DNA of 64,000 nucleotides from Candidatus Acidiferrales bacterium (GTDB lineage Bacteria; Acidobacteriota; Terriglobia; Acidiferrales; UBA7541). The stretch is from NCBI GenBank assembly GCA_035943235.1, contig DASZCH010000129.1, positions 13,229 to 77,228 of the forward strand, read 5' to 3'. Made by a program: the position numbers and the translations under genes. This document shows, one piece after another, positions 9,963-49,894 of the stretch; the first letter of the stretch is position 1, and each line of letters begins with the position of its first letter. The notes beneath the pieces were generated by a model that ran no database searches, was not told where the DNA came from, and saw nothing but the letters and a program-made list of their open reading frames with translations.

Positions 9963-10007
9963 TTGCGGCGTTCCTCCGAGTTTTCCGCAAATGATCGAGA
10001 GACCATA

Positions 10008-10859: not shown

Positions 10860-10871
10860 GATTGAACAGAA

Positions 10872-12191: not shown

Positions 12192-12199
12192 GTTGTTCC

Positions 12200-13174: not shown

Positions 13175-13208
13175 TGGATTCCTCGCGTTCGCACAACCCG
13201 CTCTTGCT

Positions 13209-13985: not shown

Positions 13986-14149
13986 ATCGCGGTGCGATTC
14001 GCGCTTTAACTTCGCGGCCTGCAATCTATTCGCAGATTTATCCCGATTTGAAATTATCGCGTCCCTGATATCCCCATTTGCGGCTGCTATCGGGGATACT
14101 CGTTCGATTGACAAGCAAATGTTATCCGCAATTCGGGGGCATCTTCATT

Positions 14150-17542: not shown

Positions 17543-17716
17543 GTTCCGTATCCTCCGTAATACGCCACGATCAGAACTCAGATACATGAAATGACACTTC
17601 ATTTCTTGCTCTTCGGTGACATCGGTCTCAATCGCTATCGTTTAGATCTGTCTTCCTTCGAGCGCAGGCACAGACCTGCCTGACGCAAGGCCGATCTCTA
17701 TCGGCGGTAAATGTCT

Positions 17717-28704: not shown

Positions 28705-31194
28705 CTACCGAACGTCTGTAAGCATCCAAACGCCGTTCTTCTTGACCAGTTGAAACTTCCAGGAGGCCTCTGATTTCTTCGCCGTTTTTCCCGCCTTCGA
28801 AGTGTACTGCTGCTGCGACTCGGCGGAAACTGTAGCTGTCGCTCCGTCTGGACTCACGTTCACAGTTTGATTGACGATTTGCATGGTTATCACGCTTGCG
28901 TCTGCGAACGAACGCTTGTAGCCATCGTACGTCTTTTGAGGAATGGTCGGCCAAACCTGCCTGAGTTCATCGGGATTTCTTTCTTCGAACGCCCGAAAGA
29001 AAGTTTGCACCACAGTGCGAACCGCCGTTTCATCCGCAGCCCTCGTGCCCTGCGTCTCCCGTTTCGCTGGGGGAGGCGGCAAAACGGCGGCTGGAGGTTG
29101 ATTCAATGCGTTCAACTTGGCGGTGATATCACCAACGCATTTTTGCGCTTCGTCGGCGTGAGGTCCGTTCTGTGTGAACGATTGCATGGATTCACGGGCG
29201 GATGCCAGTCCGCTCTTGTCGGTCCCCGCTAGGACCTGCTGACATTTCCGAGAAGCAGCCTGGAAGGCGAGTCCGAACCGCTGCGACTGCGCGCGAGCTT
29301 GGATGTCGGAAATTGACGATTGAATGCTATTGACGTAACTCTGCGCTTCAGCTGACTTGGGGCCTCCGCTATTTACGAGCGCCTGGAATTTGGGCTGCAA
29401 AGCCTTCAGCTGCTGAACGGATGAATCGTCATCACCCTGCTTCAATTGATTGAATTGACTCTCAAGCTGGCTTAGTCGATCCCCTTCGGATTTTTCAATT
29501 TCACCGTTCAACTCGCTCGCATCGCCGCCGCTCTGCTGAAGCTGCGCACTAAATTTTCGGGCTGACTCGATATCACCCTTTTTGAGAGACTGGCGCGCTT
29601 CTGTAAGCTGTTTGCCCTGCTGCTTCAATTTGGGGATGACCTCGGTGAGATACCTTTGGGCGTCCTCGCGGTGCACGCCTCCATCCGGCAATGCCTGCAC
29701 CTGTCTCAACTCAGCCTCGGCTTGTGCGAACTGCTTCGCGCCTATATTGCCGACCGCTTGCTGCCACAGCTGCGCCTCATGCTGTCGAAGCTGTCGAAGC
29801 TGTGCGTTCCTCATCGATTCTTCGATTTGTCCGCGCATTGAATGAAGGGTAGGAGTAAGAGGACCGTTTAAGTTTTCGGCGTCGAGGACCGTCTGGCGAG
29901 CCTTCTCGAGATCGTTGGCCGCTACGAGTTTCTCTGCAGCGACCATTGCATCACGCTGCTTGACCTCCAGCGGATTCGCCGGAGGAAGAACAACCGCGGT
30001 CTTTGTGACGGCGACTTCGGGAACTTTAGGCGGCGGAGTGTGCGGCCAGAGGAAATACTCAGCTGACACGGCAGCGGCTAACAACACGAGCAGGATAAGA
30101 ACGGCAGTGCCCATCGCGGTTTTCGTGCGCCACCAGGGCTCGGGGACGGCCGCAGCAATCTGGGGAGTCGAGCTTGCTGCGGGCGTGGATGGAGTCGACG
30201 GCGGCGCGACCATCATCGGAGCCGTCGGATTCATTGCCATCGACGATGACAGGGCGGCCTCATCGGCTTGATCCTCCACTGCTGTGATTACAATGGTTTT
30301 GCCGGAGCTGAGCTGCCGCGCAAGGCGTTTCAGATCCCCCCGGAGTTCAGCTGCGCTTTGGCACCGCAACTCGCGGTCCTTCTCGAGCGCCTTGTTAATG
30401 ATTTCTTCGAGTTTGCGCGGGACTTCGGGGTTCAAGCGCACGGGAGCAACGGGTGCTCGATTCAGAATCGCGTCGAAGATAACAGCGGACGTTTCGCCGC
30501 GAAAGGGCAGCGCGCCCGTCGCCATTTCGTACAAGACTGCGCCAAAGGAAAACAAATCCGTGCGCGCGTCGAGTTCTTTCCCGCGTGCCTGCTCCGGAGA
30601 CATGTAGGCAACAGTCCCCATAGCCGTGCCCGGGCTGGTCAACTGCTCCTCGGGAACAGGTGCTGTCTCTTTTGTGGTAGTGAAGTCCGATGCTAGCGCG
30701 AGAATCTGGGCTGACCTTGGCTGAGCGGTAAGCTTCGCCAGGCCGAAGTCCAGAATCTTGGCGTGGCCGCGCTGGGTTACGAAAATGTTCGCCGGCTTTA
30801 TGTCCCGGTGGACGATTCCTCGCGAGTGAGCCGCGTCAAGTGCATCAGCCAACTGAACTCCCAAATCCACGATTTGTTCGATGTCCAGGGGCCTGCGTTG
30901 GATCATGTGCTTGAGCGTTTTGCCTTCGAGCAACTCCATGGCAATGAAATGACGGCCGTTTTTTTCGTCGATTTCATAGATCGTGCAGATATTGGGGTGG
31001 TTGAGCGAGGACGCTGCAAATGCTTCCCGCTGAAATCGTTCGCGAGCGGCAGGATCTTTTTCCAATTCTTCCGGAAGGAACTTCAGCGCGACGTGGCGGC
31101 GAAGGTTCAGATCCTCGGCTTCGTAGACAATACCCATGCCGCCGCCACCGAGCGCACTGAGTATGCGGTAATGCGAGACCGTCGTTCCGATCAT
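28705..31194 (-). CDS. Hanks-type Ser/Thr protein kinase with TM segment, long coiled-coil region and C-terminal NTF2/SnoaL-like domain
   Basis: Kinase motifs [31 protein letters not shown] and YMSPEQ. TM segment [15 protein letters not shown]-terminus [24 protein letters not shown]...[17 protein letters not shown]. Confidence 0.9.
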
Positions 31195-33043: not shown

Positions 33044-33761
33044 CGCAGGAGCCATGTTGGGGCACCATGCATCCATGGGAACAACGCAGTCATAAGCAAA
33101 AGACTTCTCCGTCGCGCACAAGCTAGAAGCGTTCTGAGGAATGCTCGGGGCGGCGGACACAAACCGGATCGTTATCTGGACGCAGTTCAATTATTAAGCA
33201 GAAACCAATGCCGGCGATGGTCAACAGACGAGTGGCGCGTCGTTCGAAATGAAATCGCCCGCTCACTCTGAGGGCAGCCGTAATCCGGCATGTCACTGAG
33301 GTTTAAAACCGCTGTAACAGCGCTGTAACACGGATAACCCAGACGGCAAATTGAGGACCTGGAACCGAGAGATGCTATCGTTGTCTGCCTGCTCCTTTTA
33401 TCTTTTGCGGGATACCTTACGAACGAGGTTCGAATTGAGGACAGTTTTGCACACTAGTTCTCTGAGAGTCCACGTCGAAGCGTGGAGTGCTAGCCCCAAA
33501 GAGCTCCCCCCTCGGCGGTCCGCGTGGCTATTCGTCTGACGGATGCCTTTTATCTATACAATTCATTGGACAGCTAACATTGAAACAGCCAGTATTGCGC
33601 CAGTTTTCGCGTTCCAGCGACCACTTGGGGCAGGGTCGCTCTCAATGGGTTCCTTTTTACGGAAAAAATGGCGGCCGCGCCGGCTTGAGGGCGTAGCGAG
33701 AAGCGGCAAGCTAACGGCGGGGCGGAAGCTCCCCGAAGAATGGCTAGGGAGGAAGACACCA

Positions 33762-36700
33762 ATGAAAACGAATCTGCGAAAGGCCAGTTGGAGGTTGCTC
33801 TTGATGATGGTGGCGGTGTCGGCGGGCTTGGCGATTCCTGCCCGCGGACAGACTAGCCCCTCGACTGGGGCGATTCAGGGCTTGGTGCAAGATCCAAGCG
33901 GTGCAGTTGTTTCTGGCGCTGCGATAGCCCTGGTCAACCCTACCTTGGGTATAAACCGCACAGTTCATTCTGCCTCGGACGGTACCTTCCTGTTCGCTCT
34001 CCTCCAGCCAGGCAGCGGATATGAAATCACGGTTGAGCATTCCGGCTTTCAGAAAGCAAGCGTCTCCAACGTGGCTGTTAACGTTACACAGATCACCGCC
34101 GTTAATGTCCGCTTGGTGGTGGGCAGCGTAACCCAGCAAGTCGTTGTCAGCGGCGCAGCCACTCCCATCCATACATCGGATGCGACGCTCGGCAACACCC
34201 TGACGTCGAGAGTTATTGAGAGCATCCCGCTGCCGACGCGCGATGTTCTGGATATTTTGGCAACGGACGCGGGAGTGGTCTCGCAGTTGACCTCTCCGGC
34301 CGCAACAATCCTGCAGGGCTCGGAGGCCATGTTCGTGGGCGGAAATCGCGCCACATCCAACAACTATATGGTCAACGGGATCGATGCGAACAATTTCGAA
34401 TTCCACACTTTGGCAACAGGGATCGTCCCCATTCCCAACCCGGATGCCGTCGAGGAGTTCCGGACAGAGACCAGTCTGTACGATGCCAGCACAGGATTTA
34501 GTGGCGGGGGCAATATCGTCCTCGTCACGCGGCGCGGCACGAATAAATACCACGGAACGGCATACGAATTTCTGCGCAACACGGATATGAATGCCAATGA
34601 CTTCTTTTTTAATGCCGCCGGAAAGCCGCGTCCAGTCATGCAGCAAAACCAATTTGGATTTTCCATGGGAGGCCCGGTGCCCAAAGCGCCGAACACCTAT
34701 TGGTTTTTCAATTACGAAGGGCAGCGTCAGCGTAACGGTGTCACCGGCGCGGCGACAGGACTGCTTCCCGTGCTCCCCGACGATCGAAGCTCCGCTTCTC
34801 TGGCATCACTCTATAACCTTCCCCAAAACGCCATCGATCCGGTGGCAATCGCCATCCTGAACGCCCCGGGGCCTTACGGCGGGAAACTCTTCCCCAGCGG
34901 TTCAGGCGCGCCACAAGGGGAACTCGGATCATTTGCGTTTTCCTCCCCTGCGCAACTGAATAGCAATCAATACAACGCCCGCATCGATCACAGCTTTGGG
35001 ATCGGTGGCGTAGACAACCAGTTCAGCGTTTCTTACTTCGCGAATCCCGATACGTTCACAAACAGCAGCGGCGCAAACGGAAGCACGATTGGCCAGCCCT
35101 ATCAATACCTTCTCCAAAACGAGACACTCTCAGTTCAGGATACGCAAACGATCCGCCCGGACCTGCTGAACAGCATCAATGTGGGATTCACATACAACAA
35201 ACGGGACATTGGGGCGATCCGCCCGCTGACGCTGAACGATTTTGGAATGACGCGGTTTAATTCTTCGATTATCGACCGGGGCCCCAATTTTTCCTTTTCG
35301 GACCAGATGAATTGCTGCGGCGCTAGCGTTTCTGTGGGTGAGACGCAGCACAACGAATCGCAGGATTTCCGGGATATGCTGTCCTACTCTCATGGCGTGC
35401 ATTTCTTCCGTTTCGGCTTTGAAGCGCGCACCCAGCAGTTCAATTTCGGCTCCCCGCTCGATCCTGGCTCGCTTTTCTTTCAGGGCGGCCTGGCCGATGC
35501 GCTCTACGGCCCGCCGAGCGATCCCAATGCCGATCTTTCCATTCGTGATTTCCTCGTCGGGGCGCCTTTTTTCATCAGCATTGGCAGCGGACTGAACGAT
35601 TTTGAGTACCGCGCCCATGATTTTGGGCTCTTCGGTGAGGACGATTATCACTTGACGAGTCGGCTTACCTTGAATCTTGGTTTGCGCTGGGATTATTTAG
35701 GGAATATCAGCGAGAAGCATGATTTGATCTCGAATTTCGATCCCTCCTTGCTAACCCCGCTGGCCATGCAAACCGGCGGCCCGGGTCTGCAGGACGGATT
35801 CGTGATTCCCTCCGGTGCCCCGAGGTTTGGTACTCCCGGAGTCTCGAAATCCACTTACAACAACCAGCCGCTCAAGGATTTCGAGCCGCGAGTCGGTTTT
35901 GGACTCGACGTGTTGGGGAATGGCCGGCTGGCGCTCCGCGGCGGATTCGGCTTGTATTTCTCTCGGATTGGGCCTTTTGGCCTGCTGCAGAGCATCAGCA
36001 ATCCGCCTTTTGCGCTGAGCACGGCGATTGTCAATACCTCACAGGCACAGATCCTCTCTGATCCGTTCCCCACTCTTCCGCTCCCAAGCCAGTTTCCTAT
36101 CTTCACGCCCTTTCCGCAGCTCACTTCCCTCAACCCTGACGGCTCGCCCAATTTTACGGGTCCACAGTTGAATGTCATTGAGTTGCAGCGCGACGCGCAC
36201 CCGCCGTACACCGAACAGTGGAACCTGACAACGGAATACGAATTCGTTAAGGGCTGGACCATACAGGTCGGCTACATGGGTTCCCACGGCATTCACCTTC
36301 AGGATTTCCAAGGCTTGAACAACGCTCTGCTGCGCAATGCCAACAATCCTGGCCCCTCGGGTCTGGACGTGAATTCCGCGCAGAATCGGGAATCCCGTGT
36401 TCCCTACGCGGGCATCAGCTCGACGGGAATGCTGGCGCTCACGGACGCGGGAGCTTCGAGCTACAACGCTCTGCTTGTCACGCTGAGTCACGAGTTTTCT
36501 CGCGGCCTGTTTCTCAAAGCTGCCTACACCTTTTCGAAAACCATCGACAATGTACAAGCACAGGCAGGTTTCGAACCCACTATCGGTCCAAGCGGAAATC
36601 AATTTCTCCCGCAGCTCAATCGAGGCATCTCCAATTTCGATGTCCCGCATCGCCTGGTGCTCACCTACGTCTACGACATCCCGGGACCCAGAAGCGGATG

Positions 36701-37277
36701 GCAAGCCGCCCTTCTGAATCACTGGACTTTGTCGGGGATCACCACGCTTCAATCCGGCTTCGCGGGAGAAATCGATCAGTTCACCGCGGGAAACTCCCTG
36801 TCGGGAACCGATGGATACGGCATCCTGACACCGGGTTGCGCGCTCGTGAATGGAGGCAATGCAAGCGCCCACACACGCAATTACCTCAATAGCTCTTGCG
36901 TATCGACGACCGCTGCGCTTCTGAGCGGAAGCACGTTCGGCCCGTTGTCTCCCTTCGAGGGACCTGGAAACCAGACCTATACGATCGATCCGAGCAACCC
37001 CGCAGCTATCGGCTATCTGCAAGGCCCATCCACTCGGGGCGCATTTTTTGGCCCGTTCGAGACGCGCTGGGACATGGCCCTGGCCAAAACTATTCCCCTG
37101 CGGGAGCTCGGCGAGCAGGGAAATTTACAGTTCCGCGCCGAAGCCTTCAAAATTTTCAATACACCGATCTTCAGCAATCCGCACAGCGTGGCCGGATTGT
37201 CGAGCTTCGGGAGAATTACCAGCACAATCGACAACACTGGCCGTCAATTGCAGCTGGCGGTTCGGCTGAACTGGTAA
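33762..37277 (+). CDS. TonB-dependent receptor with N-terminal CarboxypepD_reg domain
   Basis: GGGAGGAAG RBS. Signal peptide MKTNLRKASWRLLLMMVAVSAGLAIPARGQ. Sequence GAIQGLVQDPSGAVVSGAAIALVN... Ends ..QLAVRLNW. Paralog of 14150..17542. Confidence 0.85.
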   Translation: MKTNLRKASWRLLLMMVAVSAGLAIPARGQTSPSTGAIQGLVQDPSGAVVSGAAIALVNPTLGINRTVHSASDGTFLFALLQPGSGYEITVEHSGFQKASVSNVAVNVTQITAVNVRLVVGSVTQQVVVSGAATPIHTSDATLGNTLTSRVIESIPLPTRDVLDILATDAGVVSQLTSPAATILQGSEAMFVGGNRATSNNYMVNGIDANNFEFHTLATGIVPIPNPDAVEEFRTETSLYDASTGFSGGGNIVLVTRRGTNKYHGTAYEFLRNTDMNANDFFFNAAGKPRPVMQQNQFGFSMGGPVPKAPNTYWFFNYEGQRQRNGVTGAATGLLPVLPDDRSSASLASLYNLPQNAIDPVAIAILNAPGPYGGKLFPSGSGAPQGELGSFAFSSPAQLNSNQYNARIDHSFGIGGVDNQFSVSYFANPDTFTNSSGANGSTIGQPYQYLLQNETLSVQDTQTIRPDLLNSINVGFTYNKRDIGAIRPLTLNDFGMTRFNSSIIDRGPNFSFSDQMNCCGASVSVGETQHNESQDFRDMLSYSHGVHFFRFGFEARTQQFNFGSPLDPGSLFFQGGLADALYGPPSDPNADLSIRDFLVGAPFFISIGSGLNDFEYRAHDFGLFGEDDYHLTSRLTLNLGLRWDYLGNISEKHDLISNFDPSLLTPLAMQTGGPGLQDGFVIPSGAPRFGTPGVSKSTYNNQPLKDFEPRVGFGLDVLGNGRLALRGGFGLYFSRIGPFGLLQSISNPPFALSTAIVNTSQAQILSDPFPTLPLPSQFPIFTPFPQLTSLNPDGSPNFTGPQLNVIELQRDAHPPYTEQWNLTTEYEFVKGWTIQVGYMGSHGIHLQDFQGLNNALLRNANNPGPSGLDVNSAQNRESRVPYAGISSTGMLALTDAGASSYNALLVTLSHEFSRGLFLKAAYTFSKTIDNVQAQAGFEPTIGPSGNQFLPQLNRGISNFDVPHRLVLTYVYDIPGPRSGWQAALLNHWTLSGITTLQSGFAGEIDQFTAGNSLSGTDGYGILTPGCALVNGGNASAHTRNYLNSSCVSTTAALLSGSTFGPLSPFEGPGNQTYTIDPSNPAAIGYLQGPSTRGAFFGPFETRWDMALAKTIPLRELGEQGNLQFRAEAFKIFNTPIFSNPHSVAGLSSFGRITSTIDNTGRQLQLAVRLNW

Positions 37278-40547: not shown

Positions 40548-41876
40548 TTAGTACGCGAATGGATTATCCGGGAAGGTCAAAACGGGGCGATGCCCTCCGG
40601 CGAGCGCATCGCTGAAATGCAGGAGCCACATACCGATCCCGGAAGCTCCTTGCATATACCCGGTTTGCGCAACCGCAATATCCGGGCGGACCCGGGTTTC
40701 CACCTGCACCCAGCGGTACCGTTTGCCGTCCTCCTCAGCCAGTGCGAGGAGTTGTTCGCCGCCCTTCTTGGCCGCCCTGAACCATCTGCGATCATGAGTG
40801 ACCAGAAAAGCATCGTAGAGAAACTCCGATTCGGCCGCAATCCCGCAGCACATGCTAACGTTATGCCAAACACCTGGAGTGACCGCCTTTGCCGGGCCTC
40901 CGTTGGCTACGACGGCTTCCGCACATTTCTCCACGAGATCCCGCCATTGCCGATCACCAGTCGCCTGGTAGAGTCTATAGAATAGCCGTGCTGTTCCGGC
41001 CGGTCCGTGACACCAGCCCAAGTAAAAAAGATCTTGGTGCTCGCTATCGTGGTAGATCATGCAGTAGCGGTCATTCAGGTCGGCGATGGACAGTAAGTAC
41101 TTCGCGCCAGCAAGCGCCGCATCGAGGAACTTCTTTTGGCCTGTGGCCTGGTACAGCGTAGCTAAGAAATAAGAAACACCGGCCGTGCCGTGCGAGAAAT
41201 TGGGCATCTCCCGAGGATAGCTCGGATCCATCATCCACATCAGGCCGTCTTGTTTTCGCTGAGCGGTCGCGATCAAGAAATCACCGGCGCGCGCCGCGAG
41301 CTGTTTTGCTCCCGGAGCCTGGAGGTGGTCGGCGGCCCAAAGCAGGAAGAGGCCGGTGCCGCTCGAACCCGCGATGATGTCAGTGACATCGTTCCATTTG
41401 GCCCCTGTGGGTGTCATTTGCGCGCGTTTTTCCAGCCAGCGCACGCAAAGGAGAGCGCCGTCGCGATAACGGGTGTCATGCGTAATCAGGTACGCTTCCC
41501 CGAGCGTGAAGCCAGAACCGGCGAGGCCTTCATACAATCCGGTCCCATCTTTCTCGGAAATCGATACAAGAAGAGCGTCAGCTCCCTTCTCGCCCTTTTC
41601 CAGGAAATCCAGGTCCTGCGTGTAGCGATAGGCTTCAAGAAAAAACAGAATTGGACCTGGAGTGCCAGCATACAGCGTAGTGTTAACACTCTCCGGATTT
41701 CGAGGGTCCGCAGGCCAGACGATCCCATTCCCCCTGTTCGAGCCGTTTTCCTCGATCCAGTGCGCCGCCCCAATGGCTGCTCGCTGGTACGCGTCTCGGG
41801 TTCGTCCTCGCGCCCCCCAGGAAATGGAAAGCGCGGCGCAAGCCGCCACTGCTGCAATTCTCAAATGCTTGCTCAT
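40548..41876 (-). CDS. Exported LanC-like (lanthionine synthetase C-like fold) protein, paralog 1
   Basis: N-terminal signal-like segment MSKHLRIAAVAACAALSISWG. LanC-type G-rich repeat motifs GLAGSG, GSSGTG, NFSHGTAG, GWCHGPAG, MCCGIAAE and GASGIG. Confidence 0.7.
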   Translation of the reverse strand: MSKHLRIAAVAACAALSISWGARGRTRDAYQRAAIGAAHWIEENGSNRGNGIVWPADPRNPESVNTTLYAGTPGPILFFLEAYRYTQDLDFLEKGEKGADALLVSISEKDGTGLYEGLAGSGFTLGEAYLITHDTRYRDGALLCVRWLEKRAQMTPTGAKWNDVTDIIAGSSGTGLFLLWAADHLQAPGAKQLAARAGDFLIATAQRKQDGLMWMMDPSYPREMPNFSHGTAGVSYFLATLYQATGQKKFLDAALAGAKYLLSIADLNDRYCMIYHDSEHQDLFYLGWCHGPAGTARLFYRLYQATGDRQWRDLVEKCAEAVVANGGPAKAVTPGVWHNVSMCCGIAAESEFLYDAFLVTHDRRWFRAAKKGGEQLLALAEEDGKRYRWVQVETRVRPDIAVAQTGYMQGASGIGMWLLHFSDALAGGHRPVLTFPDNPFAY

Positions 41877-41928
41877 GGAGTTCGCTCCTCGGCACGAACC
41901 GTTCGGACTTTCTGACCCCGCAGCGTTC

Positions 41929-43326
41929 TCAGTAAGGGAACGGGTTATCAGGAAATCGGATGACAGGCCGGTGTTGTCCGGCGAGCGCGGCGTTGAAATG
42001 CAGCAGCCACATCCCTATCCCCGAGGCCCCCTGCATATAGGACGTTTGCGCAATGGCATAGTCTGGCCGAACGAAAGTTTCGACCTGCACCCAGCGGTAT
42101 TCTCCATCACGCACATCGGCTCTCCGCAGTAAGTCTTCACTGCCTTCTTTGGCCGCCTGGAGCCATTTGCGATCATGCGCAACCAGATAAACATTGTAAA
42201 AAAACTCCGCCTCGCCGGCCGTGCCGTCGCAGATGCTGACGTTGCGCCATACGCCCGGATTCGGGATTTGCTTGGGCTGGCCTTGGCGCCAAACCGTGAG
42301 CGTCCTGGCCGATCCCGATGGTATGGTCGTAAAAGCCTTCTCTGGCCCACCAAAAATCCGTGTGGCTGCCGCGCACTTTTCCACTAATTCCAGCCACTTC
42401 GGCTGTTTTGTAATTTGATAAAGGCGGTAGAAGAGTGCGGCGGTTCCCGCCGGGCCGTGCGCCCAATCGAGATAAAAGAGATGCGTGTTGTGATTGTCAT
42501 GATAGACGAGGAAATACCGATCTGAGGAATTGGCGATCGCGATCAGGTGCCTGGCGCCTTTGCGCGCGGCGTCCAGAAACTCCTTGCGACCGGTGACCTG
42601 ATAAAGCGTAGCCAGAAAATACGCCACTCCAGCCGTGCCGTGACAGAAATTCGGCATCTCGAATGGATAGCTGTTGTCCATCATCCACTTGAGCCCGCCC
42701 CCGGGTTGCGGCTGGCCAAGCCGAATCAGATGTTCACCAACCCGCATGGCCAAGGCACGGGCCTCCACCGCCTGGAGGTGGTCGGCCGCCCAAAGTAGGA
42801 ATAGGCCTGTCCCGCTCGCTCCGCTAATGATATCCGTGACCTCATTCCACTTGCTTCCATCCGCAGTATTCGTCGCCTTCGCCTCAATCCAGTGCAGGCA
42901 CTGCAGCGCACCTTCCCGATACTTGGCATCGCGAGTGATCAAATAGGCCTCGCCCAAGGTGAAACCAGAACCTGCGAGACCAGTGTACAGACCTGTGTCG
43001 TCATTCTTGGAAATGGAGGCGAGGAGCGCATCGGCTCCCTTGCGCGCCTCTTCGAGGTCCGCGCGATTTCCCGTGTAACGGTAGGCCTCCAGGAAAAAGA
43101 GAATCGGGCCGGGAGTGCCGGCGAAGAGAGTTGTATTCATACTCTTGGGGTCTTCGGGATTGGCGGCCCAGACGATTCCCGAATTCTTGGCTGTGCCGTT
43201 CATGCGGAGCCACTGCGCCGCTCCGAGAGCCGCTTTTTCATAAGGGGAGTCCGCAGCTTGCGCGGGAAGAGTGGAAACCATCAGAACGATTAGGAAGACT
43301 GCGACGCCTTGGAGCAGATGTTTCAT
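41929..43326 (-). CDS. Exported LanC-like protein, paralog 2 (degenerate metal-ligand motifs)
   Basis: Signal peptide MKHLLQGVAVFLIVLMVSTLPAQA. Roughly two-thirds identical to paralog 1 by eye. Motifs NFCHGTAG, DWAHGPAG (Cys lost) and ICDGTAGE. Extra ~24-aa insertion TTIPSGSARTLTVWRQGQPKQIPN. Confidence 0.7.
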   Translation of the reverse strand: MKHLLQGVAVFLIVLMVSTLPAQAADSPYEKAALGAAQWLRMNGTAKNSGIVWAANPEDPKSMNTTLFAGTPGPILFFLEAYRYTGNRADLEEARKGADALLASISKNDDTGLYTGLAGSGFTLGEAYLITRDAKYREGALQCLHWIEAKATNTADGSKWNEVTDIISGASGTGLFLLWAADHLQAVEARALAMRVGEHLIRLGQPQPGGGLKWMMDNSYPFEMPNFCHGTAGVAYFLATLYQVTGRKEFLDAARKGARHLIAIANSSDRYFLVYHDNHNTHLFYLDWAHGPAGTAALFYRLYQITKQPKWLELVEKCAAATRIFGGPEKAFTTIPSGSARTLTVWRQGQPKQIPNPGVWRNVSICDGTAGEAEFFYNVYLVAHDRKWLQAAKEGSEDLLRRADVRDGEYRWVQVETFVRPDYAIAQTSYMQGASGIGMWLLHFNAALAGQHRPVIRFPDNPFPY

Positions 43327-43350
43327 TAATCCACCTCCGCTGCACTGCTG

Positions 43351-45516
43351 CTATTTGTGAAAAACCAGCCGGCCGTTCTTGACGACGGCGACGATGTTTC
43401 TCAAGCTCTTGATGGACGCAAGCGGGTCGCCGTGAACGACGATGATATCGGCGCGACGGCCCACTTGGATTGTGCCGAAATCATCTCCTCTGCCCAGCCA
43501 AGAGGCCCCACTCCCAGTCGCCGCTCGGATGATCTGCTCACGAGGAATACCGGCCTGCTCGTAGGCCTCCAGTTCATCAAAGAGGCTGCCGTCGTCGGTG
43601 CCTGCTAAGAGAGGTACTCCCGCGGCCACAGCATTGTGCACGAACTGCGACATCCGTCCGTAGCTCTGCTCCCAAGTGGCAACTTCCTCGAGACTGAGTT
43701 CTTTACGCAGGGAAGGAGCGGGAGACTGGATCGACAAGGTCGGGTCAAAGCCAATTTTCGCCCGCGACATGCTGGCAATCAATTCCTGGGCGCGAGCGCC
43801 GTTGGGATCGATGTTTCGCCAGTCCGCTTGCATTCGCGCGACGAGGTGCCATGCAGCATCGAGAGTGCGGTCAGCTCCTTGCGGCTGGGCGCTCGCGGGA
43901 AGAAATTCCGGCCATACGCGGATGTGGTTGAGACCGTCGATTCCGGCGCCGATGGCTTCGGTCCAGCTCGTCCTCACTCCGATGTGTCCGGTGACCCGCA
44001 GGTGGTCTCGATGCGCAGCCTCGATCACGGCCCTGAGGACTTCCGGCTTCAGCAGAAAGTAAACCTTCAACAGATCCACACCCTGAGCCTTGAGCGAGTC
44101 AACCAGGGGCTTGGCTTGTTCTGCCTGGTTGATCTGGACCGCAACCATCGGATGGTAGGTTCCGAATCCATCAATCAATGGCCCAGCGGTGTAGATGTCC
44201 GGACCCGGCTCGAGACCCAGCGCGATGGCTTCCTTGAAGTTTAAGCTATCCGCCAGATCCGCTCCCGGATCTCGAATGCAAGTAATGCCCCGGGAAAGCA
44301 AGCGGGAGCCGCCAAAAGCGTCCCAGAAATGGTAGTGGTTATCCATCAGGCCGGGAAGAACTGAATCACCTTGCGCATCGAAAACCGGAATGCCGGCAAT
44401 ATCACCGGGGCGGAACGCCCCATGCTGAATCTTGACAATGCGCCCTCCACGAATGAGGACGCTCGCATCAGCAATCGGCGGACGGCCTGTACCATCGATC
44501 AAATGGGCATGGATGACCAGGAGATCGGAGGGCCATTGCGGTGGAACTTGGAACGCCACGTGAAAAGGAATCGGCGCGAGCGCTCCGCTAGAAATATCCA
44601 GGCGGTAGAGTTTGCGGGCTGCGCAAACGATCAGGCTGTTCGCGTCTGGTCCGAACGTGATTTGTTCATCCTGATATGCGCTGCGGAAGACCACTCGAGG
44701 TTTTCCGCCGCCCTCCGCCTGGTCGACACGGATCTCGTCTGCCCCGTTGCCGGTCTCCACGTACGCGACTCGCACTCCATCTCGGCTCCATGCAACGCTC
44801 GTATCGTCGAAGGGAGTGTTTGTAAGGCGGACCGCCCGCGTCTTCTCGACGTCCATCATGTAGAGATTTGCGCCGCCATAAAGCCCCGAGGTCAGAAGCA
44901 GGCGCTTCCCCGAAGGCGACGGCGCAAAAGACCACTCGTGCCACCCGCGAGTCTCGGTAATCTCTTCCGGTGCGCCTCCGCTGGTGGGGATCTTCCAAAT
45001 ATGGGCATCGCCTTGACCATGGCGCACCGTGAAGAAAATGTCGCCCCCCGCAGGGTCATAGGCGATTTGGCCGATCACTCCATCAGTTTCATAAACGACG
45101 GCCCAAGTCCCGACTGGGATATCGTAGACCACCAGATAACTGTGATAGTCCACCTCATGCGAAAACGCCAGAAATGCGCCATCGGGCGACCAAGCAGGGA
45201 AGCGGTCCCACCCGATACCTGATGAAATTAGTTGTCCCGTACCGCCGGCAGCAGGCAAGAGACAGATCCTACCCAGCACGCTGACGGCAATCCGGGTTCC
45301 GTCGGGGGACATGGCCGGGTCTCTCGCGCCATGGTCGACGACCACCGATCCTGGTCCGGCCCAAAGCGGTGGGGCAAAAAAAGCCACAGAGATCACCGAG
45401 AGAACAATCCCGAGAAATCCAGACAGACCGACCGGAAGAAAGCGCAGCCACAAACTCCCGGAATTATCAGAGCCGACGATAGAGCTTGAGCGGGAGCTGC
45501 AGAATTTGGATCTCAC
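43351..45516 (-). CDS. Membrane-anchored/exported TolB-like PD40 beta-propeller fused to a metal-dependent amidohydrolase
   Basis: N-terminal TM segment. PD40 repeats (MSPDGTRIAVS, WSPDGAFLAFS, PSPSGKRLLLTS, WSRDGVRVAYV). Amidohydrolase motifs VLPGLMDNHYHFWD, ..VTGHIG and ..LAGTDDG. Confidence 0.8.
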   Translation of the reverse strand: MRSKFCSSRSSSIVGSDNSGSLWLRFLPVGLSGFLGIVLSVISVAFFAPPLWAGPGSVVVDHGARDPAMSPDGTRIAVSVLGRICLLPAAGGTGQLISSGIGWDRFPAWSPDGAFLAFSHEVDYHSYLVVYDIPVGTWAVVYETDGVIGQIAYDPAGGDIFFTVRHGQGDAHIWKIPTSGGAPEEITETRGWHEWSFAPSPSGKRLLLTSGLYGGANLYMMDVEKTRAVRLTNTPFDDTSVAWSRDGVRVAYVETGNGADEIRVDQAEGGGKPRVVFRSAYQDEQITFGPDANSLIVCAARKLYRLDISSGALAPIPFHVAFQVPPQWPSDLLVIHAHLIDGTGRPPIADASVLIRGGRIVKIQHGAFRPGDIAGIPVFDAQGDSVLPGLMDNHYHFWDAFGGSRLLSRGITCIRDPGADLADSLNFKEAIALGLEPGPDIYTAGPLIDGFGTYHPMVAVQINQAEQAKPLVDSLKAQGVDLLKVYFLLKPEVLRAVIEAAHRDHLRVTGHIGVRTSWTEAIGAGIDGLNHIRVWPEFLPASAQPQGADRTLDAAWHLVARMQADWRNIDPNGARAQELIASMSRAKIGFDPTLSIQSPAPSLRKELSLEEVATWEQSYGRMSQFVHNAVAAGVPLLAGTDDGSLFDELEAYEQAGIPREQIIRAATGSGASWLGRGDDFGTIQVGRRADIIVVHGDPLASIKSLRNIVAVVKNGRLVFHK

Positions 45517-45519
45517 GAC

Positions 45520-45936
45520 CTAGCCTCGGACGACCTGGATGGTGACAGAAACTTCCGCTGTGGGTCGCAGCGACGCAGCCACGCTGCAGTACTTGGCATT
45601 CGAGAGCTCGACTGCTTGCCTCACGGCATCTTCAGAGAGATTTGGGCCTTTCAGGACATGATGGACTCGGATAGTTTCATAAAAGCGAGGAGCTTCCTGA
45701 CGGCGCTCACCTTGAACCTCAATCCGATAGTCGGTTACGTGCTCGCGCTTCTTAGCGAGAATATCGACAACGTCCGAACCCATGCATCCTCCGATCGCGA
45801 GCAGCAGCAACTCGATCGGCGTTGGCGCCGAACTTCTTTCGCTGTTGGTCTCCATAACCAGGGCCTGCCCGCCCGGACCGATCCCCACAAAGAAACCGTT
45901 GCCGCCGTAGTGCACGGTAGCGTTGATCTCTGCCAT
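45520..45936 (-). CDS. OsmC/Ohr-family peroxiredoxin-like protein
   Basis: 138 aa. Sequence ELLLLAIGGCMGSDVV and ...AKYCSVAASL (two conserved Cys). Its stop is 3 nt from the next start. Confidence 0.85.
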   Translation of the reverse strand: MAEINATVHYGGNGFFVGIGPGGQALVMETNSERSSAPTPIELLLLAIGGCMGSDVVDILAKKREHVTDYRIEVQGERRQEAPRFYETIRVHHVLKGPNLSEDAVRQAVELSNAKYCSVAASLRPTAEVSVTIQVVRG

Positions 45937-46097
45937 TCTGCTCTCCTTACCTGATGTTAGGGTTGATGGACGACGTGACGAGCGTATAATGTGGGTTCCT
46001 ACACTAGCTGTCCAATGAATTTGATAGATGAAACCTATGCTTCTTAGGAAACGGTTCGGGCGCGCATCGTAATAGCGGGTGAATCCTCAAGGAGGTT

Positions 46098-47117
46098 TTG
46101 ATGGAGTTGCGCCAGATCGAAATTTTTAAAATGCTTGCCGAGGAACTGAACTTCACGCGAGCCGGCAGAAGGATCCACTGCGTGCAGTCCAACGTGAGTG
46201 TGCAGATACGCTCTCTTGAGAAAGAATTCGGAGTCCAGTTATTTGAGAGATTAGGTCAGAAGGTGCGTCTGACAGCTCAGGGGCAAACGTTCCTACCATA
46301 TGCAGAACGCATTTTACGGTTGATACAGGAAGCCGCCGCAGTCACCAGAGGTGGTGAGAATCCGGCAGGAACTTTGATCATCGGCATGCCGGAATCCGTG
46401 CTCACCTATCGTCTGCCGCCCGTACTTCAAGTCTTTCGGGGGAACTGGCCGCACGTCGAACTGGTCTTTCGCGGAATCAGCTCCCTTGAGCTCATTCCCT
46501 GCTTGGAGCGCGGTGACCTGGATCTCGGGCTGGTCATCGATGATGCGATCCGGATCCCGGGAATTCATGCAGAGGTCTTGTGCAACGAGCCGTTAGTGCT
46601 AACTGTGCAGCCTGGACATCCGCTTTTGCGCGCGCCGATTGTTCAACCCGAGGATCTCGGATCCTATACTTTTCTGCTTACGGACCAGGGTTGCGCTTAT
46701 CGCTCTAAACTTGAGACGGCGCTGGCGCGCGTGCACGTTCGGCCAAGGACGGTCATGGAATTTACAAGCGTTGAAGCGATTAAGCAATGCGCTGCTCTGG
46801 GGATGGGAATCGCCTGTCTGCCCAAGATTGTTGTGGAGCGTGAGCTCGCTAGTAACAAACTGGTTGTTCTTCCAGCAGCGAGTTTCGAACTGACGATGAA
46901 TACGTTGGCGGTCTGGCATCGGGACAAATGGATCTCCCCAGCGATGAAGGCCTTCCTTTCGCTGATCCGGTTGCACCTGGGCAGTGCATCTATTTCTAAT
47001 GTCCCAACAAAAAGTCCGGCGACGGTCATTGACGGACGGAAGCCTGCAGCCGGTGCCGTGGGAAAGAGCTGTGAAGCCCGGATGACTTCTGGGAGACACC
47101 GCGGAGTCGCACCGTAG
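46098..47117 (+). CDS. LysR-family transcriptional regulator (divergent from the osmC operon), with an atypical ~40-aa C-terminal tail
   Basis: Sequence LRQIEIFKMLAEELNFTRAGRRIHCVQSNVSVQIRSLEKEFGVQLFER. The tail SASISNVPTKSPATVIDGRKPAAGAVGKSCEARMTSGRHRGVAP does not resemble LysR family sequence. Confidence 0.85.
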   Translation: MMELRQIEIFKMLAEELNFTRAGRRIHCVQSNVSVQIRSLEKEFGVQLFERLGQKVRLTAQGQTFLPYAERILRLIQEAAAVTRGGENPAGTLIIGMPESVLTYRLPPVLQVFRGNWPHVELVFRGISSLELIPCLERGDLDLGLVIDDAIRIPGIHAEVLCNEPLVLTVQPGHPLLRAPIVQPEDLGSYTFLLTDQGCAYRSKLETALARVHVRPRTVMEFTSVEAIKQCAALGMGIACLPKIVVERELASNKLVVLPAASFELTMNTLAVWHRDKWISPAMKAFLSLIRLHLGSASISNVPTKSPATVIDGRKPAAGAVGKSCEARMTSGRHRGVAP

Positions 47118-47381: not shown

Positions 47382-47861
47382 ATGAAAAAAACCTCAACAA
47401 CATTCCTTCAGGTGGTTATTGTGCTCATCGGCGTTGTGGCGCTGGCCATTATGATCCGGTTCCCCTGGACCGAGGGGAGAGCCGCAAACTTGGACCTGTT
47501 GCATATTTACGCTGATCCATTCCTGGCGTATGGGTACCTAGCGTCTATCGCATTTTTTGTTGCCCTGTATCAAGCGTTCAAACTACTCGGATATGTCGGG
47601 CAAAACAAAGCATTCTCTCTCAACTCTGTGAAGGCTTTGAGGACCATAAAATATTGCGCAATTGTACTGAGCATTTTAATTGCGATGGCAGGACTATATA
47701 TAAGGATATTTCATGCTAAAGATGACGATCCGGCGGGTTTTCTTGCCATGTGTATTGTCACTGCCTTTATTTCTATCGTGATCGCCACTGCGGCGGCCGT
47801 GTTTGAAAGGATTCTGCAGAATGCCGTCGATATGAAGTCTGAGAACGACTTAACGGTATAA
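47382..47861 (+). CDS. DUF2975-type membrane protein
   Basis: Four TM segments. AT-rich relative to neighbouring sequence. Canonical pairing with the downstream YozG-like HTH gene. Possible promoter: TTGACA 47347-47352, 17 bp, TAGTGT. Confidence 0.7.
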   Translation: MKKTSTTFLQVVIVLIGVVALAIMIRFPWTEGRAANLDLLHIYADPFLAYGYLASIAFFVALYQAFKLLGYVGQNKAFSLNSVKALRTIKYCAIVLSILIAMAGLYIRIFHAKDDDPAGFLAMCIVTAFISIVIATAAAVFERILQNAVDMKSENDLTV

Positions 47862-47868
47862 ATGCCCC

Positions 47869-48072
47869 ATGGCGATCATCATTAACATCGACGTCATGCT
47901 GGCAAAGCGAAAAATGAGTGTCACCGAGCTTGCCGAGAAAGTCGGCATCACGATGGCAAATATTTCCGTGCTGAAAAACGGGAAGGCAAGGGCGATCCGG
48001 CTATCGACCTTGGAGGCGATTTGCAAGGCGCTTGGTTGTCAGCCCGGAGATATTTTGGAATACAAGAAATAG
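47869..48072 (+). CDS. Small XRE/YozG-like HTH transcriptional regulator
   Basis: Sequence IIINIDVMLAKRKMSVTELAEKVGITMANISVLKNGKARAIRLSTLEAICKALGCQPGDILEY. Confidence 0.85.
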   Translation: MAIIINIDVMLAKRKMSVTELAEKVGITMANISVLKNGKARAIRLSTLEAICKALGCQPGDILEYKK

Positions 48073-48199
48073 GCACTCGGTTGCGCCGGCAAAAATATTG
48101 AGGAACTATATGCAAGGCTACTCTGATTTTTTGAGGGCGTCGGAAATCGTGGTAACCCGACTGTGCACGAAGTGTGCACGAATCGAAGGTTTTGAGGGT

Positions 48200-48350
48200 A
48201 TTGGGGTTAGCTTTTGAGCGAAAGCAGATTCTCCGATTTGTTGTAAACGCTAGCAGTTAAAGTGAGCGAGGCGGCTGTTAGAAGCGACTCGCGCGCTTTG
48301 CAAGAAGGGTCGCACTAGCGATAGAGCGCCTGCCTGCTGAGCAGGTGGTC
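48200..48350 (+). repeat. Imperfect direct repeat flanking the AbiE cassette (copy A)
   Basis: The core ATTGGGGTTAGCTTTTGAGCGAAAGCAGAT (48200-48229) recurs at 50066-50096 with one substitution and a 1-nt indel. Weaker colinear similarity follows (TTGTAAA, TAAAGTGA, GCTGAGCAGGTG). Confidence 0.6.
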
Positions 48351-48377
48351 TCCCATTTCTGAATTTGATTGAAATCT

Positions 48378-49295
48378 TTAGCACCAGGGCCCGCACGGTT
48401 CCCAGCGTTTAGCGAACGGACTGCCGTCGAGCAAAGCCGTTGCGACGGGCGTCAAGAAACGCTTTACGTTTTCGACTACTTCCTTGAGTTCGGTCTTCGT
48501 AACGTATGTCGCGTTTCTGGTACAGAATGCGGTCCACTGCTTCTTCTTATCCGTGTCGTTATAGAACTCGGGTGTGAAAGCGACTGGGGTGCCGGCGGCC
48601 GGTAGCTCAGTTCCGCGTCGCTCGAATGTTTTGCGGATCGCTTCGCCAAGCATTTTGCCGTCGAAATCGAGACTCCGCGAAAGAGCTTCAAGATCATAGA
48701 AGTCTTTCATTCGGCTGTTGGCGATCCCGAGCTTAACTATGGCCTCGAATTTTTCCGCGACAACCGTTTCCTTGGGATAGGTGAGAAGGCGAGGATTGGA
48801 TGCCGCTAGTAGCGTGGGATATTCAGTTTCGATGGGTGGGGGAGTTACGACATCTCCGAATCCGATATCGGTCTGAATCGGAATACGCGCGCGCTCAAGG
48901 TACGCCGTGAATGTCACGCGCACGCCTCCCTAGTCGGCGTCCTCGGTGATGCGCTCGGCTTTGACCGACCCAGCGTCGAAGGTTAAGCCATCAGGTTCAA
49001 CTTCAGTGGCGCAAAGTTCCTTGAAGATCGCCACGAAACGTTCGGGGGAATTGTCGCCCCGTGCGAGGAAATCCGCGTCTCTCGTGGCGCGGTAGGTATG
49101 TTTTGTCCAGAGTTCGAAGAGCAACGCGCCTTTTAGGACGAACGTATTGCGGTGCTTTGAGCGGCTGAGGCGATACAGAATTCTCTCAAGACCGTACTTC
49201 ACGAGAATCAACCCGAAGTCTTCGTTCCGTGAACGAGCCAAGTCGAGCAATTTCTGGCGTACCGAGGCCGCGAGGTTCTTGGGTTCATGCGGCAC
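48378..49295 (-). pseudogene. abiEii: AbiEii/DUF1814 nucleotidyltransferase toxin interrupted by an in-frame TAG
   Basis: The N-terminal part (49295..48933) ends ...KAERITEDAD-TAG(48930-48932). The same frame continues GGVRVTFTAYLERARIPIQTDIGFGDVVTP..., so the two track ORFs (48930..49295 and 48378..48923) are one gene. Confidence 0.8.
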
Positions 49296-49894
49296 TAGAG
49301 CGACTCCAGGTAGGGGCGGATCACTTTCGCAACGCGGCAGACTTTCGCTGCGGCCCAGAGTTGGTCAATGGAAGCCTTCTTGAGCCGTCGAGATTCTTTC
49401 AGAGCCTCGATGGCGACATCGAGTCCGATCTTGTAGCGGAACTTAAAGCAATCAGCGACAGTCTTGGCAGGCGTAAAAACGCGGATGACTCGGCCAGACA
49501 CATGATGTTCAGACGCTCCGAACTGAAGCGCTGGGCCGGACATGCGAACGAATCGAACTGGCGGAGACGAAATTGTGGGAGCCCAGGCTTTGTGGCCGAT
49601 GGCCATCCACACTTCGCGCGGAGATTGGGTAGTGAGGTTGTGAAATCGGAGTGCGGAGAGCAGGCAAATAATGCCTTGGGTGACCTGATACGATGCTTCG
49701 ACAAGCGATGCGTGTTCACTGGGAGAAAATCCCGGTGACGTGTATAGGCCACGTGCAATTTTTTCGAGTTGCCCCTGGCGAGCCAGCCGGGACAGATAGG
49801 TCCGCGGGACGCCGAGCTGAGCTGCATCGGCGGCAGTAATGATCTGGCGTTTGGTGGCCAGATTGCGAAGTTTGTCGGCTTTGGATTTGGGCAT
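49295..49894 (-). CDS. abiEi: AbiEi-type (type IV TA) antitoxin/transcriptional regulator
   Basis: Sequence ITAADAAQLGVPRTYLSRLARQGQLEKIARGLY..., followed by the C-terminal AbiEi domain. Its stop abuts the toxin start. Confidence 0.8.
   Translation of the reverse strand: MPKSKADKLRNLATKRQIITAADAAQLGVPRTYLSRLARQGQLEKIARGLYTSPGFSPSEHASLVEASYQVTQGIICLLSALRFHNLTTQSPREVWMAIGHKAWAPTISSPPVRFVRMSGPALQFGASEHHVSGRVIRVFTPAKTVADCFKFRYKIGLDVAIEALKESRRLKKASIDQLWAAAKVCRVAKVIRPYLESL

Follow-up and report, generated by a model that had tools for sequence, protein, structure and literature searches.

Two tandem, predicted exported LanC-like proteins, paralog 1 (P1) and paralog 2 (P2), are encoded in a 64,000-nt stretch of the genome of Candidatus Acidiferrales bacterium (assembly GCA_035943235.1, contig DASZCH010000129.1, forward strand, 13,229 to 77,228; hereafter the window, whose own numbering is used throughout). 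Their genes lie in a minus-strand operon with genes for a propeller-amidohydrolase and an OsmC-family protein, next to a divergent LysR-type regulator gene. The functional unit is larger than this operon: a convergent operon encoding a TonB-dependent-receptor-like outer-membrane protein (TBDR) and an exported Sortilin-Vps10/BNR beta-propeller protein carries the same promoter-overlapping box, and in a related genome both of these genes are joined with the other parts in a single operon. We interpret the unit as a LysR-controlled regulon for peptide uptake and degradation in which the LanC-like enzymes handle thioether or dehydroalanine links, a tentative interpretation to which we assign a probability of roughly 0.4. 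The system is real, conserved, and previously uncharacterised, and its function is one that we infer.

A sequence-only reading of this region had identified the two paralogs as LanC-like proteins with signal-peptide-like N termini, and both points are borne out here. The LANC_like profile (PF05147) scores 132.3 bits against P1 and 122.8 bits against P2, far above its cut-off of 23.2. AlphaFold2 models (mean predicted local distance difference test values of 94.1 for P1 and 91.3 for P2) retrieve proteins of the double alpha/alpha barrel LanC fold, with E values of 1e-8 to 1e-11, template modeling (TM) scores of 0.6 to 0.7, and 13 to 19% identity. The top Foldseek matches for the two paralogs comprise LanCL2, Arabidopsis GCR2, the class IV enzyme CuvL, the class I cyclase MadC, LanCL1, ThurKC, LicM2, and NisC; P1 matches LanCL2, GCR2, CuvL, MadC, LanCL1, and NisC with TM scores of 0.61 to 0.68, and the best matches for P2 are CuvL, LanCL, and NisC, with LanKC domains of the ThurKC/PneKC type also matched. 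On these models, P1 and P2 are genuine but divergent LanC-fold proteins.

The paralogs belong to a sizeable family. A protein search over 5.8 billion sequences returned more than 2500 relatives, annotated merely as "lanthionine synthetase LanC family protein" or "lantibiotic modifying enzyme." In an exhaustive profile search, the clusters formed at 50% identity numbered 690 for E ≤ 1e-30 and 4871 for E ≤ 1e-10, and we take at least 690 clusters as a lower bound on family size. Relatives occur in 428 of the 185,579 species genomes scanned, and the hosts are soil and sediment Acidobacteriota and some Planctomycetota. Nearly all members are standalone proteins of 430 to 480 residues; rare fusions involve CARDB (an extracellular domain), an HZS-alpha middle domain, or a partial GH29 fucosidase domain. 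A signal-like hydrophobic N terminus is present in 104 of 110 full-length members, both paralogs included, and the family is predicted to be exported. We considered P1 as a lipoprotein on account of its VAAC sequence; this Cys is not conserved in an 89%-identical orthologue, and an ordinary Sec signal is more likely. Our literature searches turned up no publication dealing with exported LanC-like proteins of bacteria, and the largest genomic survey put aside 3052 "unclassified" LanC-like proteins, unanalysed (PMC7268733). Some family members carry unexpected taxonomic labels. A 2.4-kb contig binned as Bradyrhizobium (L011, NZ_JBAVCF010000520.1) encodes a P2 and P1 pair whose P1-type member is 74 to 76% identical to P1 of the window, and loci labelled "uncultured Clostridia/Eubacteriales" (L024, L028, L037, and L046, among others) encode proteins about 45 to 52% identical to P1, like those of Acidobacteriota metagenome-assembled genomes (MAGs). 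Both kinds of label probably reflect errors of binning or taxonomy in public MAGs.

The active-site motifs of the two paralogs differ from each other and from the canonical LanC arrangement of a Cys followed by a Cys-His pair. P1 has FSHGTAG, GWCHGPAG, and MCCGIAAE, placing Cys289, Cys343, and Cys344 at the ligand positions, and P2 has FCHGTAG, DWAHGPAG, and ICDGTAGE, placing Ala289, Cys366, and Asp367 there. The earlier statement that neither paralog has the canonical set is thus literally correct, and its quoted motifs are accurate. As a description of P1 as lacking a functional ligand set it is too strong, because CCG is a known zinc site and the norm of the family. The CCG motif of ProcM-like synthetases supplies three zinc-binding residues and has been tied to promiscuity (PMC10783134), and the roles of zinc, of the acid/base His, and of a second His in LanC enzymes, together with the retro-Michael reaction, are established (PMC9934072). 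Residue conservation was counted over 139 diverse family representatives. The predicted Zn(Cys)3 ligands of P1 (C289, C343, and C344) are kept in 129 to 131 of them (∼94%), and the canonical His at position 344 occurs in a single one. The putative acid/base residue H229 (134/139) aligns with the His of the LanCL HG motif (LanCL1 H219, NisC H212) and is accompanied by D166 (129/139), both being invariant in P1-type and P2-type sequences; the second His, H290 (131/139), aligns with LanCL1 His277 within a common WCHG motif. All close P1-type sequences have Cys272, a position at which every P2-type sequence has Phe. We considered this Cys as a fourth zinc ligand and rejected it as a core ligand, since only 40 of the 139 representatives have it; it may be an extra ligand, part of a disulfide, or a redox switch. 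By these residue patterns P1 is not degenerate: it carries the ProcM-type CCG variant, which is probably more reactive than the canonical set, and with its LanC fold, conserved catalytic residues, and known type of zinc site it looks catalytically competent.

P2 represents a derived lineage that accounts for 14 of 122 close homologues. The changes S228C, C272F, C289A, C344D, and R395F are invariant in it and are accompanied by a Gly-to-Asp substitution two residues before the lost Cys (DWAHG) and by a conserved insertion just ahead of the third motif, modelled as a beta-hairpin (approximately residues 342 to 355). This insertion measures 23 residues, one fewer than had been read from the sequence. 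The last Cys is also lost (xGDG) in half of the lineage. His229, Asp166, His290, Tyr285, His276, Asn339, and Glu393 are retained. P2-type genes were found only in the LysR/OsmC operon context, and in two loci (L014 and L015) the P2-type gene is the sole LanC-like gene. Because it is conserved across a lineage and is the only LanC-like gene at these two loci, we read P2 as a conserved and presumably functional derivative that has dispensed with zinc ligands, and not as a decaying copy.

Comparison with characterised LanC-fold systems delimits what the paralogs may do. P1 resembles the ProcM-type CCG domains and the class IV enzyme CuvL (8CAR) in having Cys/Cys-Cys and the catalytic His, whereas P2 lacks CCG; the aligned CuvL sequence contains QCCGLAG, and CuvL ranks with the best matches by sequence and by fold. 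In ProcM and CuvL, however, the cyclase is the C-terminal domain of a cytoplasmic multidomain synthetase acting on leader-bearing precursors, whereas P1 and P2 are standalone and exported, consist of the LanC domain only, and share only 15 to 19% identity with these enzymes; neither a dehydratase nor a kinase or precursor is encoded near them. Their match to the LanM model TIGR03897 is limited to model positions 587 to 932, at 136 bits against a cut-off of 304. Cyclase domains of class III LanKC enzymes (ThurKC and PneKC) have a LanC-like fold without zinc ligands and are nevertheless functional (PMC11330476). P2 likewise lacks zinc ligands; unlike these domains, which have no conventional His-Asp pair and occur as fusions with lyase and kinase domains, it keeps His-Asp, is standalone and exported, and carries the Asp substitutions and the hairpin. 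The closest functional analogy is with eukaryotic LanCL1 and LanCL2, which are also standalone LanC-fold proteins of about 400 residues with an intermolecular logic, not one of tailoring RiPPs (peptides made on the ribosome and modified after translation), and with the WCHG second His. Compartment, ligands, and context all differ: LanCL proteins are cytosolic, bind zinc through Cys-Cys-His, and use glutathione, whereas P1 and P2 are exported, have a Cys3 set or no zinc-ligand set, and sit in a TonB-dependent uptake regulon, with TM scores to LanCL of only 0.6 to 0.7.

The same comparison bears on a lanthipeptide origin, which the sequence-only reading had dismissed and which our scans also reject. 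Lanthipeptide cyclisation is cytoplasmic, and the paralogs are exported. Pfam scans that covered the large open reading frames (ORFs) of the 64-kb window gave no match to LanB, LanM, LanT, or LanP; DUF4135 was not found in the window, and the gaps of the operon are too small for a precursor gene. The sole Ser/Thr kinase of the window (28705 to 31194, minus strand, 829 aa, with a C-terminal SnoaL_4-like region) has no LanC domain and is thus not LanL or LanKC. A cryptic lanthipeptide or other RiPP pathway, with dehydratase and precursor elsewhere in the genome, would fit the good scores of the paralogs against LanL and LanM cyclase models and the suggestion that RiPP classes not yet known may account for some of the unclassified LanC-like genes (PMC7268733). 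We regard it as highly improbable: no dehydratase or precursor occurs in the window or within the 10-kb flanks of the related loci examined, Sec-type signals are incompatible with cytoplasmic leader-guided cyclisation, and the partner genes are those of uptake and catabolism.

The evidence joining the LanC-like genes to an uptake function comes first from their promoter. The spacer between the LysR and OsmC genes contains a block of about 50 nt, conserved in six loci, that holds the sigma-70-like promoter of the OsmC operon (-35 TTGGACA, 17 nt, CATTAT) and whose core is box A. This core, TTTCATCTATCAAATTCATTGGACAGCTA, has one other match in the window, box B, which precedes the TBDR gene and whose -35 and -10 elements are spaced as in box A. 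A 19-mer search allowing up to 3 mismatches found 2 sites against 0.01 expected by chance per window. Exact matches to the degenerate box lie upstream of OsmC in 9 loci, and the second box recurs upstream of the TBDR gene in L001/L009, L013, L014, and L015. Because the box pair recurs in the window and in four other genomes, we conclude that the two convergent operons form one conserved regulon. The obvious candidate regulator is the divergent LysR protein, which has the HTH_1 and substrate domains of its type, is kept in the divergent position in L009, L010, L013, L014, and L015, and faces a conserved block that overlaps the -35 element. An ATAG-N7-CTAT dyad, earlier proposed as the LysR operator, is indeed present at 46024 to 46038, and box A contains half of it. 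The dyad lies inside the conserved block of about 50 nt. In a spacer of 160 nt, a 4+4 dyad is close to chance expectation, and relatives differ in its left arm (ATAG, ATGG, and ATTG). We therefore set the dyad aside as a LysR box; the conserved element is the 29-nt box overlapping the -35.

The coordinates of the unit are collected in Table 1. The arrangement described earlier, four packed minus-strand genes with a divergent LysR gene, was confirmed by the coordinates, with gaps of 52, 24, and 3 nt between the genes for P1, P2, the amidohydrolase, and OsmC. The LysR ORF opens at 46098, the likely start being the ATG at 46101 that follows AAGGAGG. The TBDR ORF opens at 33543, and its likely start (MKTNLRK) is at 33762. 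The Sortilin/BNR gene follows the TBDR gene by 65 nt and is convergent with the P1 gene across a gap of 10 nt.

Table 1. Features of the LanC-like regulon in the 64,000-nt window
Feature	Coordinates	Strand	Details
Promoter/operator box B (TTTTATCTATACAATTCATTGGACAGCTA)	33548..33576	+	-35 TTGGACA, 17 nt, CAGTAT; ∼190 nt upstream of the TBDR start
TonB-dependent-receptor-like outer-membrane protein (TBDR)	33762..37277	+	Pfam OMP_b-brl_4 3.5e-159, CarboxypepD_reg 6e-16
Exported Sortilin-Vps10/BNR beta-propeller protein, 1064 aa	37343..40537	+	Pfam Sortilin-Vps10 2.7e-27, BNR
LanC-like paralog 1 (P1), 442 aa, predicted exported	40548..41876	-	Pfam LANC_like 2e-38
LanC-like paralog 2 (P2), 465 aa, predicted exported	41929..43326	-	Pfam LANC_like 1.6e-35
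Exported TolB/tricorn-like propeller-amidohydrolase, 721 aa	43351..45516	-	Pfam PD40, Amidohydro_1, DPPIV_N
OsmC-family protein (YhfA subgroup), 138 aa, first gene of the operon	45520..45936	-	Pfam OsmC 1.8e-18
Promoter/operator box A (TTTCATCTATCAAATTCATTGGACAGCTA)	46005..46033	-	-35 TGGACA 46014-46009, -10 CATTAT 45991-45986
LysR-type regulator, 338 aa from ATG 46101	46101..47117	+	Pfam HTH_1 7e-20, LysR_substrate 1e-54

Gene neighbourhoods in relatives were compared by a tblastn co-occurrence screen, whose 40% coverage filter under-called partners, supplemented by de novo ORF clustering. An 89%-identical relative has the same gene order, including the convergent TBDR-like and Sortilin-Vps10/BNR genes. 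In L006, a 57%-identical relative, genes for a TBDR, a pyridoxal phosphate (PLP) enzyme (PALP), the PD40-amidohydrolase, the LanC-like protein, Sortilin, and OsmC share a strand and are separated by no more than 151 nt, adjoined by a GntR regulator. Among 14 close loci, TBDR and Sortilin genes are found within 10 kb at 8, the amidohydrolase gene at 5, and OsmC and LysR genes at 5; the TBDR gene adjoins the LanC-like genes or shares their operon at 8 of the 14. The OsmC gene is present in L006, L009, L010, L013, L014, and L015. Variant loci add further enzymes: in L020 an S41/PDZ peptidase gene lies between those for the TBDR and the amidohydrolase, and in L050 (Blastocatellia) genes for an amino-acid permease, an S15 X-Pro dipeptidyl peptidase, the amidohydrolase, Sortilin, and the LanC-like protein lie on one strand. 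The association proposed from the single stretch is thus conserved, but it is confined to a subclade of Acidiferrales/Terriglobia. Elsewhere, at 11 loci of Blastocatellia and related bacteria (L023 to L060; for example, L035 7686 to 14431), a CCG-type LanC-like gene lies in a fixed order of PrkA, DUF444, SpoVR, an S1/P1-nuclease-like or VIT/VWA gene, the LanC-like gene, a geranylgeranyl-reductase-family flavoprotein, a major facilitator superfamily protein, and a CopD-like protein. We treated this PrkA-DUF444-SpoVR neighbourhood as clade synteny of unrelated housekeeping genes and not as a functional linkage.

The partner proteins point to peptides as the substrate. The closest solved structures to the amidohydrolase are the L-Arg carboxypeptidase Cc2672, Xaa-Pro dipeptidase, and ochratoxinase. 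It has the HxH, Lys, His, His, and Asp ligands of the peptidase-type (cog1228) branch of the amidohydrolase superfamily, and these binuclear metal ligands (H394, H396, K484, H511, H531, and D641) are conserved in 9 homologues. Its metal ligands and best PDB matches are those of cog1228 peptidases (Cc2672, Sgx9260-type prolidases, and ochratoxinase); unlike them, it is exported and fused to an N-terminal half that resembles the propellers of TolB, tricorn, and dipeptidyl peptidase IV (DPP-IV). Such propellers gate peptide access in tricorn and DPP-IV-type peptidases. The protein had been described as a transmembrane-anchored propeller-amidohydrolase; the fusion stands and its export is sound, while the anchor is uncertain, the N terminus being long and hydrophobic and its homologues carrying ordinary cleavable signals.

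The TBDR has an orthologue of 1171 aa in L001, and the Sortilin gene is co-located with a TBDR gene in all variant loci. A second TBDR-like (14150 to 17602) and Sortilin/BNR (17717 to 20890) pair lies on the minus strand of the window, within 8493 to 20890, where it adjoins genes for an IclR regulator, an AstE/AspA-type deacylase, a class-III aminotransferase, and a sodium:solute symporter. Such pairs also occur in L004, L006, L010, L013 to L015, L017, L020, and L050, which suggests that the TBDR and Sortilin-like proteins constitute a generic acidobacterial uptake module for substrates of the peptide or amino-acid type. Literature searches on the TBDR-Sortilin pairing returned nothing relevant. 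By analogy only, the layout recalls the SusC/SusD loci of Bacteroidota, which combine a TonB-dependent transporter, an exported partner, periplasmic degradative enzymes, and a local regulator; here, however, the partner is a Sortilin/BNR protein and not a SusD-family one, the enzymes are of peptidase and amino-acid type instead of carbohydrate-active enzymes (CAZymes), and the phylum is Acidobacteriota.

We favor a peptide over a glycan context because of the peptidase-like amidohydrolase and, in variant loci, the S41 and S15 peptidases and the amino-acid permease. This choice matters for an alternative in which P1 and P2 would not be thia-Michael enzymes at all but periplasmic binding or chaperone proteins, or six-hairpin CAZymes, in a locus for the use of glycans or glycopeptides that centres on the BNR/Sortilin protein. 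The paralogs do have weak Pfam matches to GH127, GH88, GH76, and C5-epimerase, families of the same fold clan, a homologue with the partial GH29 fucosidase and others with CARDB exist as fusions, two conserved Asp residues occupy the former metal site of P2, and the Sortilin-like protein matches the NCBIfam F510_1955 family glycosylhydrolase model, below its cut-off and with only distant BNR propellers in the PDB. We nevertheless consider this alternative improbable, as LANC_like scores about 100 bits above any glycoside hydrolase match, the LanC catalytic residues are conserved family-wide, Foldseek ranks LanC and LanCL proteins first for both paralogs, with sugar epimerases and GH76/GH88 well below them, the genes nearby encode peptidases and enzymes of amino-acid metabolism, and the window scans revealed no canonical CAZyme. 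A GH127-like Cys-zinc glycosidase in particular (GH127 beta-L-arabinofuranosidases have a Cys3-Glu zinc site), suggested by the CC motif and the faint Pfam match, was rejected: the scores are 21.5 bits for P1 and 25.0 for P2 against a cut-off of 24.9, P2 reaching it without any stretch passing alone, and GH127 is missing from the top 50 Foldseek matches.

The peptide-regulon interpretation would run as follows, joining the observed folds, motifs, export signals, linkage, and shared box to a proposed substrate class, reaction direction, and set of protein roles. The TBDR and the exported Sortilin/BNR propeller would capture the substrate and import it across the outer membrane, and the propeller-gated amidohydrolase, of carboxypeptidase or dipeptidase type, would cut peptide bonds in the periplasm. 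The exported LanC-like proteins may then process dehydroalanine or dehydrobutyrine residues, or cross-links derived from them, which are refractory to ordinary peptidases. For P1 this would be zinc-thiolate thia-Michael chemistry, either the addition of a thiol to a dehydro residue or the reverse opening of lanthionine-type thioethers; catalysis in one direction or the other is its most likely role given its conserved site. P2 probably performs a related metal-independent step or binds substrate. The YhfA-type OsmC protein would be a conserved cytoplasmic member of the regulon.

In relatives, the pathway may be completed by a PLP lyase of the D-cysteine desulfhydrase/D-cysteate sulfo-lyase/ACC-deaminase family (DcyD/CuyA), a cytoplasmic enzyme that would finish S-substituted D-cysteine or lanthionine. 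Its gene follows CCG-type LanC-like genes in L013, L016 to L019 (for example, L016 11423 to 12544), L021, L059, and L089, and the contexts that flank it there are of at least five kinds; it belongs to the same operon in L006, lies 6 to 7 kb from the LanC-like gene in L045, and never accompanies P2-only loci. The LanC addition step creates a D-configured centre, which fits a D-specific lyase as partner. E. coli D-cysteine desulfhydrase (DcyD) cleaves DL-lanthionine with a Km of 0.11 mM (PMC4048297, Table 1). A more specific and rather doubtful version of the scheme casts P1 and P2 as catabolic "de-crosslinking" lyases that run LanC chemistry backwards on imported peptides such as lanthipeptides or aged and necromass protein. 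P1 would open lanthionine thioethers, the D-cysteine-desulfhydrase-family lyase would finish the free lanthionine, and acid-assisted elimination by the Asp-bearing, zinc-less P2 would open amine-type links, for example lysinoalanine, with the TBDR and Sortilin-like proteins forming a new acidobacterial peptide-uptake module analogous to SusC/SusD.

The sequence-only reading had instead suggested an envelope system tied to oxidative stress through OsmC and LysR. In such a defence, the exported LanC-like proteins would quench periplasmic electrophiles by thiol addition, as LanCL does with glutathione, the targets being dehydroamino-acid antibiotics (lanthipeptides and thiopeptides) or damaged envelope proteins. 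The standalone architecture and the WCHG second His shared with LanCL1, the export of the proteins, the link between a Cys3 zinc site and high, promiscuous reactivity in ProcM, and the two-Cys OsmC-family protein heading the operon would all suit it. The stress tie, however, is weak. The OsmC protein, earlier called OsmC/Ohr-like, belongs to the OsmC family, but it is nearest the YhfA subgroup rather than Ohr or OsmC proper: its NCBIfam PRK10738 score is 105 bits against a cut-off of 138, and its best PDB match (6e-23) is 1ML8, labelled "hypothetical protein (crp region)," which we take to be E. coli YhfA. It has Cys51 and Cys117 and no signal peptide, and is cytoplasmic; the YhfA subgroup is named in the profile and PDB tables only as hypothetical or OsmC family. 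The best NCBIfam matches of the LysR protein are PtrR (179 bits), GltC, and YeiE, all under their cut-offs. An OxyR-like redox regulator was rejected, as OxyR scores 98 bits, also below its cut-off, and no redox signature is present; the protein resembles catabolic regulators. The neighbouring genes include neither a periplasmic system for donating thiols nor an exporter. The box shared with an outer-membrane importer, together with the peptidases, permease, and PLP lyase, fits consumption better, and it is because of this box-sharing TBDR-Sortilin operon and the peptidases of variant loci that we prefer uptake and catabolism to envelope repair. We judge the defence explanation unlikely, if less so than the glycan one.

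Several observations weigh against the peptide-regulon interpretation. The window itself lacks the PLP lyase and an inner-membrane transporter for the regulon. The link of the divergent LysR protein to the boxes is suggested by position only. TBDR-Sortilin pairs are frequent in this genome, with two in the window, which inflates the chance of their adjacency to the LanC-like genes while leaving the shared box unaffected. A Zn(Cys)3 site would be unusual in an oxidising periplasm, where the cysteines could instead form disulfides. L014 and L015 possess the zinc-less P2 alone, and thiol-zinc chemistry cannot then be the essential step of the regulon. Outside the Terriglobia/Acidiferrales subclade the LanC-like gene occurs in unrelated contexts, and in L090 and L091 it has no evident partner; given these unrelated contexts, the general role of the family may not be tied to TonB uptake.

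The region beyond the LysR gene differs between the window and the 89%-identical relative. Synteny stops right after LysR (L001 1720 to 4333 and L002/L003 157 to 1050, compared with 47382 to 49894 of the window): the relative has integrase and transposase genes, and the window has genes for a DUF2975 membrane protein and an AbiE pair. The flank appears to be variable or mobile. The AbiEi antitoxin gene (49295 to 49894) is followed by an AbiEii toxin gene split into two ORFs (48930 to 49295 and 48378 to 48923), all on the minus strand, and the AbiE genes are probably a disrupted type IV toxin-antitoxin pair.

Two kinds of work are known for the LanC fold, the building of lantibiotic rings in the bacterial cytoplasm and the addition of glutathione to damaged proteins in eukaryotes. 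The locus described here points to a third setting, a secreted Cys3-type family that in one clade is wired to TonB-dependent peptide uptake, and a place in peptide import and breakdown would be an undescribed job for the fold. If P1 and P2 act on thioether or dehydroalanine links, they would provide a catabolic or detoxifying route for lanthipeptides and cross-linked necromass protein, with relevance to the turnover of soil carbon, nitrogen, and sulfur. The pair would also be a natural case of a LanC active site remodelled from zinc to carboxylate and could furnish reagents to open or install thioether links outside the cell. How Acidobacteriota acquire nutrients is poorly understood, and the recurrent pairing of TBDR and Sortilin-like proteins may be an uptake module of general use in this phylum.

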